64,000 bases of DNA. It comes from a virus (taxonomy: Duplodnaviria > Caudoviricetes). The position numbers were made by a program, and so were the translations under genes. A model generated the notes under the pieces. It saw only the letters and a program-made list of their open reading frames with translations. It did not search any database and was not told the origin of the DNA. How positions within the stretch are numbered: the first letter of the stretch is position 1; every line of letters begins with the position of its first letter. Location: the IMG/VR virus record IMGVR_UViG_3300020434_000055. One strand, 5' to 3'. This document shows, one piece after another, positions 38,412-48,712 of this stretch.

Positions 38412-39419
38412 ATGCAAAAAACTAAACTAGAATACGTATGGCTAGACGGTTATAAGCCTGAACCTACATTACGATCTAAAATAAAAATAGTAGACAGATA
38501 TTGTAGTCACGTTGAAGAAGTTCCATTATGGGGCTTCGATGGTTCTAGTACACAACAAGCAAAAGGTTCAAGTTCAGATTGTATATTAAAACCTATACGA
38601 TTATACAATAGTCCTTTTGCATCTGATCAATTAGTATTATGTGAAGTTTTCAATGCAGACGGAACACCACACGAAACAAACTCAAGAAATAAAATTGAAA
38701 GTTTAAATCAAAAAGAATATTGGTTTGGCTTTGAACAAGAATATACATTAATGTTGTCCGGACGTCCATTAGGTTGGAATCCGGACCCATTAATTTTTCC
38801 AAAGGAACAAGGAGATTATTATTGTGGAGTAGGAGGAACTAATATAGGTTCCTTAGGAAGAAAAATAATGCACGAGCATATTAAAAAATGTTTAGTTGCA
38901 GGAGTTTCAATACACGGAACTAACGCAGAAGTTATGTTAGGACAATGGGAATATCAAGTGTTTGGTCGAGGTGCTAAAAAATCGGCGGACAATGCTTGGA
39001 TGGCACGTTATATACTTTACAGAATAGCAGAAAAATATGAGGTTGATGTTAATATAGATCCCAAACCAATCAAAGGAGATTGGAACGGAAACGGTATGCA
39101 TACTAACTTTTCAAATAATAAAATGCGAGACGAAGGTGGAGAAGATTACATTAAAAGTATTTGTGAGAAATTTAAACCTGCACACAAAGAACATATTATA
39201 GAGTATGGTAGCAAAAACGAAGAACGTTTAACAGGACTACACGAAACACAACACATTGATACATTTAGTTACGGTGTTAGTGATAGAGGGGCAAGTATTA
39301 GAATTCCTTTAGCACTTACACAAAAAAATTGGAAAGGTTATTTAGAAGACAGACGTCCTTCCGGAAATGCTGATCCTTATAGAGTTACTAATCGTATATT
39401 AACAACAATGGAACAATAA
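38412..39419 (+). CDS. glnII: Glutamine synthetase type II
   Basis: WGFDGSST, FGFEQEY, NAEVMLGQWEYQ, DWNGNGMH, RLTGLHET, RGASIRIP, LEDRRP. Confidence 0.96.
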   Translation: MQKTKLEYVWLDGYKPEPTLRSKIKIVDRYCSHVEEVPLWGFDGSSTQQAKGSSSDCILKPIRLYNSPFASDQLVLCEVFNADGTPHETNSRNKIESLNQKEYWFGFEQEYTLMLSGRPLGWNPDPLIFPKEQGDYYCGVGGTNIGSLGRKIMHEHIKKCLVAGVSIHGTNAEVMLGQWEYQVFGRGAKKSADNAWMARYILYRIAEKYEVDVNIDPKPIKGDWNGNGMHTNFSNNKMRDEGGEDYIKSICEKFKPAHKEHIIEYGSKNEERLTGLHETQHIDTFSYGVSDRGASIRIPLALTQKNWKGYLEDRRPSGNADPYRVTNRILTTMEQ

Positions 39420-40687
39420 TGGATTCGATAATGAGAAATGTTCTCCCTTTAATGGATTGGAATTCTAATAGATGGGATGGCATCATCAGACCTTACTCTC
39501 AGAAAAGCGTAGAAAAATTACGTGGTACTGCTGACATTCAATATACTCTTGCTGAAAGAGGATCAAGAAAACTTTGGTACAAGTTAAAAGAATTACCTTA
39601 CGTAAGTTCCTTAGGTGCTCTTACAGGTAACCAAGCACTACAACAAGCCAAAGCAGGATTAGATGCTGTATACTTGTCAGGGTGGCAAGTGGCGGCAGAT
39701 GCAAATACAACAGACGAAATGTATCCAGACCAGTCATTATATAATACTGAAAGTGTTCCTCGCATACTTAAAAAAATTAATAATACATTTATTCGTGCAG
39801 ATCAAATTCAACATATGGAAGGTAAAGAGAACATAGATTATTTTTTACCTATTGTTGCAGATGCTGAATCAGGATTTGGTGGTGTATTGAATACGCACGA
39901 AGTATTCAAACATATGATTAGAGAAGGTGCATCAGGAGTACACTTAGAAGATCAATTGTCTTCAGCAAAAAAATGTGGACACATGGGTGGAAAAGTTTTA
40001 GTACCTACTAGCGAAATGATTGAAAAACTTGTAGCGGCTAGACTTGCCGCGGACATTATGAAAGTTCCATTAATAATAATTGCAAGAACAGATTCACTTG
40101 CTGGTGCTTTAATTAGAAGTGATCACGACGAAGTAGACCAAAAATTTATAACAGGTGAACGAACTGCTGAAGGATTCTTTAGAACAAAAGCAGGAATGGA
40201 TCAAGCAGTTGCTCGTGGACTTGCATATGCTCCATATAGTGATTTAGTATGGATGGAAACTAGTAACCCAGACATCGGAGAAGCTAAAGAATTTTGTATA
40301 GAAGTACGTAAAAAATTTCCAAATAAGATGTTTGCATACAATTGTTCTCCGTCATTTAATTGGAAAGCTAAACTAAATGACAAACAAATAAGAAACTTTA
40401 AAGACGAATTAGGAGAGATTGGTTGTAAATTTCAATTTATTACACTTGCAGGATTTCACGCATTGAATCATAGTATGTTTGATTTAGCTAGTAAATATAA
40501 AGAAACAGGCATGACTGCTTTCGTTGAACTGCAACAAAAAGAGTTTGCGGCACAGGCCCAAGGATTTACAGCAGTTAAACATCAAAGAGAAGTAGGTGCA
40601 GGATATTTTGATGAAGTATCAAAACTAGTTACAGGCAGTAGTACGTTAAGTGCTTTACAAGGATCAACAGAAGAGGAACAATTTTAA
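39419..40687 (+). CDS. aceA: Isocitrate lyase
   Basis: YLSGWQVA, YPDQSLY, ADAESGFGG, HLEDQ...KKCGHM, AYNCSPSFNW, HQREVG.GY. Confidence 0.97.
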   Translation: MDSIMRNVLPLMDWNSNRWDGIIRPYSQKSVEKLRGTADIQYTLAERGSRKLWYKLKELPYVSSLGALTGNQALQQAKAGLDAVYLSGWQVAADANTTDEMYPDQSLYNTESVPRILKKINNTFIRADQIQHMEGKENIDYFLPIVADAESGFGGVLNTHEVFKHMIREGASGVHLEDQLSSAKKCGHMGGKVLVPTSEMIEKLVAARLAADIMKVPLIIIARTDSLAGALIRSDHDEVDQKFITGERTAEGFFRTKAGMDQAVARGLAYAPYSDLVWMETSNPDIGEAKEFCIEVRKKFPNKMFAYNCSPSFNWKAKLNDKQIRNFKDELGEIGCKFQFITLAGFHALNHSMFDLASKYKETGMTAFVELQQKEFAAQAQGFTAVKHQREVGAGYFDEVSKLVTGSSTLSALQGSTEEEQF

Positions 40688-40905
40688 TGGCTCACGCAGA
40701 TAAACCAAAAACAAAACGACCTTATACTAAAGTAAGAATGGTACCTGAAGATTCTAAAATGAAGGATCACGCATTTTATTATTATGCATTTAAACCTGGT
40801 AAGGGTGAAAAGAAAAATATGAAATTAAGAATGCGAAAATATGATCCAATTACCAGAAAACATATTTGGTGGGTAGAGAAAAAATTACCACCTCACGCTC
40901 CTTAA
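40687..40905 (+). CDS. rpmG: Ribosomal protein bL33-like
   Basis: KVRMV...FYY...K...KLRMRKYDP..RKH....EKK. Confidence 0.78.
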   Translation: MAHADKPKTKRPYTKVRMVPEDSKMKDHAFYYYAFKPGKGEKKNMKLRMRKYDPITRKHIWWVEKKLPPHAP

Positions 40906-44604: not shown

Positions 44605-44633
44605 TTGACATAACTACCCAAATATGTTATAGT
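44605..44633 (+). promoter_or_regulatory. sigma70-type promoter
   Basis: TTGACA-17-TATAGT. Confidence 0.75.
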
Positions 44634-44721: not shown

Positions 44722-45531
44722 ATGACACAACTAATAAATCCTACAAAATATACTGATATAAATGGCCGTTTACGGTCATTTTTTTTGAATAAAGGATTCC
44801 TAGAAGTTCATACGCAAAATAGATTAAGCATATTAGCGGCGTGTGAAGATCCTACTACAATATCAACATACAATTATGCCGGGAAAGTTTGGCCCTTACC
44901 CCAAACCGGGCAGATGTGGCTCGAATATGAATTACTTAATGACCCAGCTGTGCCTGGGTTTTTTTGTATTAGCACGTCCTATCGACAAGAACCGAATCCT
45001 GTAAAAGGGAGGCATGACTTAATATTTCCAATGTTTGAATTTGAATTTCCAGGAACATTTGAAGATTTAAGAAGTATGGAAATAGAACTATGTGAACACT
45101 TAGGCTTTGGTCCTGTAATGGAAAAAAGTTATAAAGAATGGTCTAACATATACAACGTAAAAGAACTAGAAGCAATACATGAAGATCAAATGTGTAAAAC
45201 ACATGGTACTTGTATGATACAGAACTTTCCTAATACTACTTCTCCTTTTTGGAATATGAAACAAAATGGGGATGGTACTGCATCAAAAATAGATGTTATT
45301 ATAAAAGGAATAGAAACAATTGGTTCTGCAGAAAGATCAAGTGATCCGGATGAAATGCGAAAACAATTTCATACAATTTCAGAAGGTATGTATGCTGAAT
45401 TATTATACGGACGATTTGGAAAAGAACGAGTAGAAGAAGAACTTGAAGAATTTCTAGCACACGACTTTATTCCACGAGTAGGTGGTGGAATAGGTTTAAC
45501 TAGAATGATTAGAGCAATTGATCTAATATAA
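44722..45531 (+). CDS. Class IIb aaRS-like catalytic domain (AsnRS-related/asparagine synthetase-like) lacking an anticodon-binding domain
   Basis: Motif 1 R.FF...GFLEV, LPQTGQ, motif 2 SYRQE...RH...F.M.EFE, ETIGSAER, motif 3 GGGIGLTR. Confidence 0.85.
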   Translation: MTQLINPTKYTDINGRLRSFFLNKGFLEVHTQNRLSILAACEDPTTISTYNYAGKVWPLPQTGQMWLEYELLNDPAVPGFFCISTSYRQEPNPVKGRHDLIFPMFEFEFPGTFEDLRSMEIELCEHLGFGPVMEKSYKEWSNIYNVKELEAIHEDQMCKTHGTCMIQNFPNTTSPFWNMKQNGDGTASKIDVIIKGIETIGSAERSSDPDEMRKQFHTISEGMYAELLYGRFGKERVEEELEEFLAHDFIPRVGGGIGLTRMIRAIDLI

Positions 45532-45536
45532 TTTAC

Positions 45537-45627
45537 TCTGCGGTGGCGGAATTGGTAGACGCAATTAACTGTTCATTAATGGAGTAATTATTTACTCGTG
45601 TAGGTTCGAATCCTACCCGCAGAGCCA
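45537..45627 (+). tRNA. tRNA with GTT (Asn) anticodon and a long variable arm
   Basis: Acceptor TCTGCGG/CCGCAGA, G73, encoded CCA; T-arm GTAGG-TTCGAAT-CCTAC; anticodon arm ATTAA-CTGTTCA-TTAAT; variable stem GAGTAA/TTACTC. Confidence 0.88.
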
Positions 45628-47809: not shown

Positions 47810-48712
47810 ATGAGATTCGCTGGTGCACAGATACCTGTAACTCGTGACCTTGACCAAAATGTCGAAACAATTAAAACTAGCATTGATTGGGCCACAAAAA
47901 ATAAATGTGACTATCTAATAACTCCTGAAGGATCATTAAGCGGGTATATGCCTGACTTTGATACCTATAGTGGAGCCTCTTATTATCTAGAAGACGATAT
48001 TCGTAATCCTGACTTTAATCCTAAAAAAGTAGAACCCAAAGAAAAAAGAAAATTTGATGACGTTGAAAATGCATTAATGACTATAGAAAATTATGCAGGC
48101 AAAAATGGTGTAGGTCTTGTTCTTGGAACATTGTATATAGAAAATGAAAGTCAAGGTAAAATTAAAAGAAATCAACAACGTTACTACAGTCCAGATGGAA
48201 TGTTATTAGGTACAGTTAATAAACGATTCCTTATTAGATGGGACAATGTAATTGCTGGACACTATTCACCTTTAATTAGTATGCCTAATCGTAAAAAAAC
48301 AGAAGTTGTTAAAGCTGTAGGTATGTTATGTAATGACCTTTGGGGAGGTTGGTGGACAGGAGAAGAAAACATTGGACGTGAAGCTAAACGATTAGGAGCA
48401 GATATATTAATACACTCATCAAATGGTGCAAGAGGATTAGATCCAATAGAAGATAAAATTCATGATGACTTTCATACAGGTTGTTTAGCAATGATAACTT
48501 ATTCTGCAGATATGCCAATTATAAGTGTAGACAATAGTATTCATATGGATGGAAATGAATATCATGGAGAAACATCAAGTCCTTCTGGTGCATGGTATAA
48601 AGAAAAATTAATAGACGTTCCTAGAACTGGTACACAACATTTTCACTTTGACTTTACTCCAAAACCACAACAAACACAATTTATAGATCCTGCTATTTCT
48701 TTTGGATCCTAA
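47810..48712 (+). CDS. Carbon-nitrogen hydrolase (nitrilase superfamily)
   Basis: AGAQI, TPEGSLSGY, NK, LCNDLW (E-K-C triad). Confidence 0.88.
   Translation: MRFAGAQIPVTRDLDQNVETIKTSIDWATKNKCDYLITPEGSLSGYMPDFDTYSGASYYLEDDIRNPDFNPKKVEPKEKRKFDDVENALMTIENYAGKNGVGLVLGTLYIENESQGKIKRNQQRYYSPDGMLLGTVNKRFLIRWDNVIAGHYSPLISMPNRKKTEVVKAVGMLCNDLWGGWWTGEENIGREAKRLGADILIHSSNGARGLDPIEDKIHDDFHTGCLAMITYSADMPIISVDNSIHMDGNEYHGETSSPSGAWYKEKLIDVPRTGTQHFHFDFTPKPQQTQFIDPAISFGS

Follow-up and report, generated by a model that had tools for sequence, protein, structure and literature searches.

A transfer RNA (tRNA) gene that sets the anticodon and acceptor end of asparagine on a long-armed class II body, and the gene of a synthetase-like protein, P0001, that lies directly ahead of it, are the subject of this report; both were found in a window of 64,000 nucleotides (nt), the whole stretch of DNA analyzed, from the IMG/VR virus record IMGVR_UViG_3300020434_000055 (Duplodnaviria; Caudoviricetes). 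The two genes are strictly linked in phages; the tRNA is genuine, and selection acts on its structure. Our leading but tentative explanation is that they form a dedicated enzyme-tRNA pair making Asn-tRNA. Judged by its terminase, gp32 and UvsX, the window phage is a T4-like marine myovirus, 20 kb of its DNA gave no megablast match to known phages, and asparagine codons represent 5.6% of its codons (AAU 4.3%, AAC 1.4%). The features on which the argument turns are the following.

44722-45531, + strand: P0001, a 269-residue class IIb aminoacyl-tRNA-synthetase catalytic core without an anticodon-binding domain (PF00152, phrog_29758, AlphaFold2 model)
45537-45627, + strand: class II-shaped tRNA(GUU), 91 nt, with encoded CCA (ARAGORN, Rfam RF00005, family covariance model, covariation in five helices)
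45569-45575, + strand: anticodon loop C32 U33 G34 U35 U36 C37 A38 (direct reading of the sequence)
45571-45573, + strand: anticodon GUU
45574, + strand: pyrimidine 37
45582-45597, + strand: variable arm, a 6-base-pair (bp) stem GAGUAA/UUACUC with loop UUAU (ARAGORN structure)

A class II-shaped tRNA(GUU) and its marine-phage family

ARAGORN reported a tRNA-Asn (gtt) of 91 nt on the + strand, the sole tRNA of the window; RF00005 matched the same place with 50.5 bits (gathering score 29), and R1, a covariance model built from the same 33 family tRNAs that make up our structural alignment, scored it at 89.2 bits. The acceptor stem (UCUGCGG/CCGCAGA) opens with U1-A72 and is followed by G73 and then by the encoded CCA, while U8 and G9 lead into a 3-bp D-stem (GCG/CGC) with the D-loop GAAUUGGUAGA. 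The anticodon stem (AUUAA/UUAAU) is A/U throughout, and the T-arm (GUAGG-UUCGAAU-CCUAC) is normal. The stems follow the standard 7/5 arrangement, not the 8/4 or 9/3 of allo-tRNAs and tRNA-Sec-like molecules, and their pairs are supported by covariation. Between the anticodon and T stems lie 19 nt, and neither the 4-5-nt variable loop nor the 4-bp D-stem of a class I tRNA-Asn is present; the D-arm is of the Leu type, and a phage tRNA-Leu(UAA) encoded on a related contig matches it nearly base for base. A first-pass annotation, made from the sequence alone, had listed a 91-nt cloverleaf, GUU, U1-A72, G73, CCA, this D-arm, the 6-bp variable stem, the A/U anticodon stem and C37; each of these items is correct, ARAGORN, one of the programs it had named as a check, places the same molecule at the same coordinates and strand, and its description of a chimera, in which a class II body of Leu type bears the anticodon and the acceptor identity of Asn, holds. 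At least 98% of the sampled words of the window stretch are present in 17 DNA runs from at least eight studies (seawater metagenomes).

The first-pass annotation had also proposed looking in related phages for GUU combined with a variable arm, and a large marine-phage family came to light. It includes the annotated "tRNA-Asn" of the Prochlorococcus phages P-SSM2, P-SSM5 and P-SSM7 (85-88 nt), which share with the window tRNA its class II shape, the U1-A72 pair, G73 and a pyrimidine 37. In the alignment of 33 tRNAs, 99.6% of the cells are paired, compared to 44-51% in controls with a slid register, and compensatory changes on both sides were found in 20 of 24 pairs, so that all five helices are supported, including the variable stem (three of its four scored pairs changed on both sides). 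U1-A72 and G73 were each found in 90 of 90 tRNAs (U1-A72 in 32/33 of the structural alignment), the remaining acceptor pairs covary freely, and CCA is encoded in 51 of 90. Because pair 2-71 is C-G in 28/33, window included, and pair 3-70 is C-G or U-A, the acceptor stem begins U-C-C/U as it does in ordinary bacterial tRNA-Asn. The elbow elements are standard (G18 G19, T-loop UUCGA). The variable region ranges from 6 to ~38 nt in length across the family, and the arm is therefore no sequence- or length-specific handle. In one member (L057, 3300-3377) the arm has been lost altogether, leaving a molecule of 78 nt with a variable loop of 6 nt that has kept the Leu-type D-arm, the GUU-U37 loop and the upstream enzyme gene.

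It is in the anticodon loop that the family departs most visibly from other tRNAs, in which purine 37 and U33 are close to universal. The anticodon is GUU in 112 of 112 distinct sequences, pooled from scans of which the tRNA-seeded one itself asked for the loop Y-N-G-U-U-U-M. Within this pool the loop reads CUGUUUA in 48, UUGUUUC in 27, CAGUUUA in 14, CCGUUUA in seven, CUGUUUC in six, UUGUUUA in five, CGGUUUA in three, CAGUUAA in one and CUGUUCA in one, the latter being the window tRNA. Position 37 is thus U in 110/112, C only in the window and A once (a pyrimidine in 111/112), and in the protein-seeded sample, which is free of the bias of the pattern, U37 was found in 52 of 56. The C37 reported in the first-pass annotation is therefore true of the window tRNA but does not stand as a family trait, where U37 is the rule and C37 a minority variant. 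Position 33 is A, C or G in 25/112 (~22%), with U33 in the window, positions 32/38 are mostly C-A (74) or U-C (27), and G34-U35-U36-U37 is kept as a four-base block. In contrast, 97 other tRNAs at the same loci, used as control, carry purine 37 in 97/97 and U33 in 96/97; the class I tRNA-Asn genes among them have the loop CUGUUAA. Homologues with a Leu, Ser or Tyr anticodon, which in the first-pass annotation would have made of GUU a read error or a sign of decay, were not seen among the 112. Two further, diverged members (L031/L032, 3359-3458; L033, 3368-3466) have the loop CUGUCGA, that is, the Asp anticodon GUC with G37; they retain U1-A72 and G73, and their variable arms are ~27 nt long.

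As to which enzymes could charge such a molecule, in bacteria the Asn identity resides in the anticodon and G73, GatCAB has U1-A72 as its determinant when it amidates Asp-tRNA-Asn, G73 acts as an antideterminant against leucyl- and tyrosyl-tRNA synthetase (LeuRS, TyrRS), C2-G71 as one against the seryl enzyme (SerRS) in E. coli, and N6-threonylcarbamoyladenosine at position 37 (t6A37) keeps aspartyl-tRNA synthetase (AspRS) off yeast tRNA-Asn (PMC9976931). The window tRNA has both the GUU and G73 read by asparaginyl-tRNA synthetase (AsnRS) and the U1-A72 read by GatCAB; in place of the A37 of canonical tRNA-Asn, the site of t6A, it has C37. Of the features of a tRNA-Leu it shows the class II body and the Leu-type D-arm, but neither A73 nor a Leu anticodon, and of those of a tRNA-Ser the long arm and G73, but with C2-G71 and GUU. 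Because of G73 and C2-G71 the class II tRNA is expected to be shielded from LeuRS, TyrRS and SerRS, and from its sequence it appears to carry a full Asn/Asp-type identity without the t6A37 block.

The upstream enzyme and its linkage to the tRNA

The stop codon of P0001 lies 5 nt ahead of the tRNA. The only Pfam domain found in the protein is PF00152 (class II D/K/N core, E 7e-14), and among PHROGs it matches phrog_29758 (E 3e-121), which is of unknown function; no NCBIfam model came near its cut-off, the best being EpmA at E 1e-6, and the score with TIGR00457 (AsnRS) was 26.3 bits, well below the cut-off of 342.6. The AlphaFold2 model of P0001 is of high confidence (pLDDT, the predicted local distance difference test, 95.6), and the solved structures nearest to it are AsnRS (Z 26.6-28.0, 22-24% identity), with further matches to archaeal AspRS (Z 27.0), archaeal asparagine synthetase A (24.4-24.8), GenX (24.2) and lysyl-tRNA synthetase (LysRS). 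Residues 4-269 of the model align to residues 132-416 of Pyrococcus AsnRS, the N-terminal OB-fold being absent. The family profile likewise matched AsnRS best in the Protein Data Bank (PDB; E 6e-14), followed by AspRS (~4e-10) and GenX (3e-6); no chain of AsnA or archaeal asparagine synthetase A was among the 60 listed of 62 profile matches with E up to 1, and P0001 had no match to the AsnA models TIGR00669 and PF03590 in NCBIfam or Pfam.

In the putative amino acid pocket, Q61-x-x-Q64-x-x-L67-E68, E106-x-E108 and G-S-A-E-R205 align to QSSQLYLE, EAE and GGSMR of Brugia AsnRS, and the pocket residues together with the motif 2 and motif 3 arginines (R88, R261, E106, L67, R205) are 85-95% conserved in an alignment of 41 members with 33-58% overall identity. 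Where the P0001 family and AsnRS carry Leu and Glu, AspRS presumably has Lys and Asp. P0001 shows class II motifs 1-3 and a pocket that seems to be of the Asn type, the preference for Asn over Asp being predicted partly from the residues presumed for AspRS at these positions. On this basis P0001 is a predicted active, AsnRS-derived, amino-acid-activating core without an anticodon reader. The enzymes beside the GUC/G37 tRNAs have an unchanged pocket, and the idea that the pocket co-varies with the anticodon was consequently rejected. P0001 shares 62-65% protein identity with the "tRNA ligase" of P-SSM2, P-SSM5 and P-SSM7. The enzyme is encoded at more than 590 IMG/VR loci and forms at least 8,000 clusters at 90% identity in the protein database; its UniProt cluster representative is named "Transposase".

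The linkage of the two genes was seen from both sides. A scan of IMG/VR used a tRNA-only pattern, made up of the T-arm, the loop Y-N-G-U-U-U-M and the D-arm's 3' half. It gave 120 loci, and in 112 of them the enzyme gene comes immediately before the tRNA on the same strand (median gap 16 nt); the remaining eight have less than 850 nt upstream, which is too short to tell, so that a tRNA without the enzyme occurred in 0/112 informative loci. From the side of the protein, the R1 model found the tRNA just 3' of the enzyme gene in 67 of 80 loci, and in P-SSM2, P-SSM5 and P-SSM7 the tRNA lies within ~10 nt after the "tRNA ligase" gene. In the P-SSM2 record (L001, AY939844.2), the GenBank tRNA-Asn PSSM2_199 is placed at 164094-164179, within the coding sequence PSSM2_205, whereas ARAGORN puts it at 162082-162169, directly after PSSM2_198; another version (GU071092) appears to be the source of the annotated numbering. 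This linkage in both directions in phages, and the match between the AsnRS kinship of the enzyme and the anticodon and acceptor identity of the tRNA, argue that the two act together.

None of the seven open reading frames (ORFs) around the window pair is conserved beside it, each being found in at most 5 of 295 other loci, and the genomic surroundings of the pair are unlike in P-SSM2 and P-SSM7, which suggests that the pair is a mobile two-gene module. A possible shared promoter lies 89 nt upstream of the enzyme ATG, although the evidence is weak because such sites are no more numerous there than in shuffled sequences.

44605-44633, + strand: sigma-70-like promoter match, TTGACA-17 nt-TATAGT, with TG (consensus scan, 11/12)

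Three RNA libraries contain short contigs 100% identical to the inside of the enzyme ORF, and none has any over the tRNA; as evidence of expression this is weak, because only contigs are involved and DNA carry-over is possible.

The enzyme also occurs where the class II tRNA does not. The huge phages LR756501 and LR756508 encode it (43-50% identity), and the class II tRNA(GUU) is nowhere in their records, where the best R1 matches are ordinary tRNA-Leu genes. Phages that have the enzyme without the class II tRNA do have an ordinary tRNA-Asn elsewhere in the genome, which also argues for joint action of enzyme and tRNA. In species-representative genomes, 381 stretches encode homologues (56-72% identity), mainly in the Candidate Phyla Radiation (CPR)/Patescibacteria, Dependentiae, Aureispira, Chitinophagales, Weeksellaceae and a few Proteobacteria, and several lie on contigs that are 0.5-1.4 Mb long. 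The class II tRNA is absent from these cellular loci with the exception of five short marine contigs (L099-L103), which look like phage DNA binned into metagenome-assembled genomes (MAGs). A FastTree phylogeny places 77 marine phage-type enzymes on one side of a branch (support 87) and 72 cellular ones on the other, and the gene is sporadic, with 2 occurrences in 151 sampled Patescibacteria.

Five cellular carriers, including a complete 716-kb Saccharibacteria chromosome that has an ordinary tRNA-Asn, have GatB and no AsnRS, and because of this free asparagine would be useless to them for translation. Mutual exclusion of the enzyme with AsnRS in cells was considered and rejected, as AsnRS scored above cut-off in 9 of 41 carriers versus 19 of the 151 sampled Patescibacteria; the enzyme is therefore not a simple replacement of AsnRS. 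In 6 of the 9 AsnRS-positive carriers, which are MAGs from whose assemblies genes may be missing, neither AsnA nor AsnB was above cut-off. Carriers without AsnRS thus speak against a synthetase of free asparagine, and AsnRS-positive carriers without AsnA or AsnB speak for one. Of 21 cellular loci checked, eight, all in CPR genomes, have a tRNA-Gln gene 0.1-2.5 kb downstream of the core gene (L105, L108, L117, L121, L125, L138, L149, L158; anticodon UUG in seven, CUG in L138, there on the opposite strand); like tRNA-Asn, tRNA-Gln has U1-A72 and G73, and the proximity may be synteny among related CPR genomes. In an Aureispira MAG (L140, 1234-2148) the divergent neighbor of the enzyme homologue encodes a TIR-domain protein (ThsB-like, PDC-S66). 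Membership of the enzyme in a defense system was nevertheless rejected, as PADLOC gave no match for the enzyme itself and this neighbor looks incidental.

Candidate functions of the pair

In the explanation that we tentatively prefer, the enzyme would be an AsnRS-derived catalytic core that has lost its anticodon-binding domain, and the tRNA would derive from a phage tRNA-Leu gene whose base 73, 1-72 pair and anticodon loop were altered, with the long arm retained because Leu-type D-arm and long arm fold together. Such an anticodon-blind mini-AsnRS would recognize the acceptor end, with U1-A72/G73 and the U-C-C/U start, since this is the only invariant part outside the anticodon, and would attach asparagine, given that the three alignable pocket positions match AsnRS. 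The charged tRNA would read AAU and AAC, and the phage would gain a direct route to Asn-tRNA, independent of host AsnRS and of the two-step route through non-discriminating AspRS (ND-AspRS) and GatCAB. Pyrimidine 37 and a free position 33 may remove the dependence on t6A37 and queuosine, or block anticodon-loop nucleases. Charging by the enzyme, asparagine as the amino acid and ribosomal use of the product are what we infer from the evidence above. That the tRNA is the private substrate of the adjacent synthetase-like protein was one of three options in the first-pass annotation, and it is the best supported of them because the two genes are strictly linked; the linkage is observed, and the charging is what it suggests.

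Several points weigh against this explanation. It does not explain why pyrimidine 37 is needed, why position 33 is free, or why a GUC/G37 sub-lineage exists with an unchanged pocket; U37 and non-U33 should weaken the decoding of codons starting with A, and GUC/G37 members beside such a pocket sit badly with a pair strictly specific for Asn. Cellular homologues at 58-64% identity do without a class II tRNA, so the enzyme can dispense with it. As a bare core it is built like archaeal asparagine synthetase A (Z 24.8), and the AsnRS-positive carriers without AsnA or AsnB (6/9) fit the role of a free-asparagine synthetase. Contact between enzyme and tRNA, and aminoacylation itself, are read from linkage and sequence. 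The anomalies of the loop and the GUC members accordingly leave room for a non-ribosomal role, for amidation of a tRNA-bound amino acid and for evasion of nucleases or modification.

The latter two points of architecture and gene content, with the cellular homologues that lack the special tRNA, are also what would be expected if the pair were a module for asparagine supply, which we judge rather unlikely. The enzyme would then be a tRNA-independent asparagine synthetase, using Asp, ATP and NH3 as a functional analogue of archaeal asparagine synthetase A, and host enzymes, either AsnRS or ND-AspRS and then GatCAB, would charge an extra tRNA-Asn, the genes traveling together only as both ease the asparagine bottleneck of an A+T-rich phage. 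The tRNA does offer the full host identity set, with GUU and G73 for AsnRS or ND-AspRS and U1-A72 for GatCAB (PMC9976931), the yeast-type antideterminant against AspRS is missing without t6A37, and asparagine codons are frequent in this phage (the 5.6% given above). What such a module would leave unexplained, however, is that the tRNA is never without the enzyme (0/112) when phages often carry an ordinary tRNA-Asn alone, as well as the abnormal body and loop; moreover, the enzyme is nearer to AsnRS than to either type of asparagine synthetase A, and many CPR carriers have no AsnRS, so that free asparagine cannot enter their proteins. An unlikely alternative is that the tRNA, charged or not, serves a non-ribosomal purpose, be it as aminoacyl donor for another transferase, as direct substrate of the enzyme (e.g. 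for ATP-dependent amidation of tRNA-bound Asp), as a decoy, or as a 3' processing or stability element of the enzyme mRNA. The pyrimidine 37 in 111/112 and non-U33 in 25/112, compared to 0/97 and 1/97 in control tRNAs, would suit this, the conserved G34-U35-U36-U37 block looks like protein recognition, and, with the enzyme gene ending 5-20 nt before the tRNA, RNase P cleavage would set the 3' end of the mRNA. Yet no third conserved gene accompanies the pair, the 32-38 combinations, elbow, 7/5 stems and CCA are those of an ordinary elongator tRNA, the anticodon exactly matches the nearest synthetase relative of the enzyme, and a pure structural element would not retain GUU, U1-A72 and G73.

Quite unlikely, in our estimate, is that the N33/Y37 loop and the foreign body serve mainly to escape anticodon nucleases of host or rival phage, or dependence on host modification enzymes, the enzyme being needed as host synthetases reject the altered tRNA. 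U37 cannot become t6A, and tRNA-guanine transglycosylase needs U33-G34-U35, a site that non-U33 would abolish. Nuclease escape, the remaining option of the first-pass annotation, could account for the abnormal positions 33 and 37, and the results neither support nor contradict it. We know of no nuclease that targets tRNA-Asn in the hosts of these phages, and no anticodon-nuclease system was seen. Phage tRNAs that resist tRNA-targeting defenses through anticodon-loop changes are documented (PMC10264068, PMC11464382), and loss of tRNA supply is a known route to resistance in marine Synechococcus (PMC11726456). Nonetheless, 78% of the members keep U33, a change in the loop alone would suffice, leaving the class II body and the obligatory enzyme unexplained by nuclease escape, and this possibility overlaps with a dedicated pair rather than replacing it. 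Only a slim chance is given to an enzyme that acts on a tRNA-bound amino acid in the manner of GatCAB, or to a tRNA with U37/N33 that is "shifty" or a non-ribosomal aminoacyl carrier. In the former case, a host non-discriminating AspRS may load Asp (GUU, G73, no t6A37 block), and the phage core may bind the acceptor end and amidate the tRNA-bound Asp with ATP and ammonia, as a one-subunit replacement of GatCAB. Scarcely credible, finally, is that the class II body leads to charging with Ser or Leu and that the tRNA thereby places one of these residues at AAY codons, as the first-pass annotation had offered among its options. The long arm with G73 does resemble tRNA-Ser, and human tRNA-Leu becomes a serine acceptor in vitro by no more than an A73-to-G exchange; but the invariant G73 blocks LeuRS and TyrRS, C2-G71 (28/33, window included) blocks E. 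coli SerRS, arm length (6 to ~38 nt) and orientation are not conserved and one member has no arm, the partner enzyme is of the AsnRS type, and replacing 5.6% of residues would be highly deleterious.

Likeness to known systems and surroundings of the pair

Compared with canonical class I tRNA-Asn(GUU), judged against the Saccharibacteria tRNA-Asn and phage class I tRNA-Asn genes, the family is alike in GUU, G73, U1-A72, the U-C-C/U acceptor start and a normal T-loop and elbow, and differs in its class II body, whose D-stem is of the Leu type with 3 bp and whose variable arm measures 13-38 nt, in having U37 (C37 in the window) rather than A/t6A37, in the non-U33 of ~22% of members, and in standing always behind one enzyme gene. 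With tRNA-Leu it shares a near-identical D-arm and the same variable-arm layout (U-G...C-G-U), and the R1 model indeed scores tRNA-Leu (59-75 bits) above tRNA-Ser (44-46); A73 and G1-C72 of tRNA-Leu are, however, replaced by G73 and U1-A72, and the anticodon is that of Asn. The pairing of an atypical tRNA with an adjacent specialized synthetase-family enzyme, inherited as a unit, recalls PylS/PylT and ProRSx/tRNA-ProX, the latter reportedly described in Streptomyces by Vargas-Rodriguez and colleagues in 2021, and so does an enzyme that does not rely on normal anticodon recognition. Unlike in those systems, the anticodon of the phage tRNA matches the apparent amino acid of the enzyme, with no recoding implied, the enzyme is a bare catalytic core, and the pair is phage-borne and extremely abundant in the ocean, its charging being predicted.

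Archaeal asparagine synthetase A ("AsnRS2", PDB 3P8T and 1NNH) and bacterial AsnA resemble P0001 as class IIb cores of ~270-330 residues without an anticodon-binding domain, but P0001 is nearer to true AsnRS in structure and profile, is obligatorily linked to a tRNA in phages, and is present in genomes unable to use free asparagine for translation. Truncated synthetase cores redirected to a new acceptor are also known in EpmA/GenX (Z 24.2 to GenX), a LysRS paralogue that modifies elongation factor P (EF-P), and in Glu-Q-RS/YadB, a truncated glutamyl-tRNA synthetase that glutamylates queuosine-34 of tRNA-Asp. In contrast to EpmA/GenX, the pocket of P0001 appears to be of Asn/Asp rather than Lys type and there is no link to EF-P; modification of the anticodon loop by P0001 is a formal possibility. 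A further combination of such folds was seen in AlphaFold DB cluster A0A832ZXA5, a 931-residue "GatB" in which the last 280 residues adopt the fold of a class IIb synthetase core, and which is apparently a GatB-AspRS/AsnRS fusion, a single-chain transamidosome.

By the textbook rule, only the tRNAs for Leu, Ser, bacterial Tyr and Sec have long variable arms. This phage family, natural, very abundant and strongly conserved, departs from that rule as well as from those of purine 37 and U33, and it is tied to a synthetase-like core without an anticodon reader. The pair has been annotated since 2005-2010 as "tRNA ligase" and "tRNA-Asn" in P-SSM2, P-SSM5 and P-SSM7. Sullivan et al. (2010) only list "tRNA ligase" (T4-GC 194) as a sporadic gene, and in full-text literature searches we found no study of the tRNA or the enzyme, nor any paper remarking on the class II body, the unusual loop, the lack of an anticodon domain or the constant pairing. 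If the two genes do constitute a working anticodon-blind AsnRS-tRNA pair, they would represent a new tRNA identity built from the body of another isoacceptor and a compact, naturally orthogonal pair for genetic-code engineering, and asparagine charging would be a bottleneck in the phage infection of ocean bacteria. Should tRNA-bound amidation or an aminoacyl carrier prove true instead, a new kind of tRNA-dependent pathway would exist in very abundant ocean phages. The system is directly testable, as P-SSM2, P-SSM7 and Prochlorococcus hosts are in culture.

Near the pair, the window encodes an isocitrate lyase (PF00463, E 1e-102) together with a protein of the carbon-nitrogen hydrolase family (38412-40905 and 47810-48712), and a theme of carbon and nitrogen metabolism surrounds this asparagine-related module. 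On several related contigs a transfer-messenger RNA (tmRNA) gene lies within 1-2 kb of the pair (L038/L039, 493-875; L062, L063 and L065, in which it is on the minus strand just upstream of the enzyme gene), with the tags AVNEDFALAA, ANDNYQAEMSLAA and similar.

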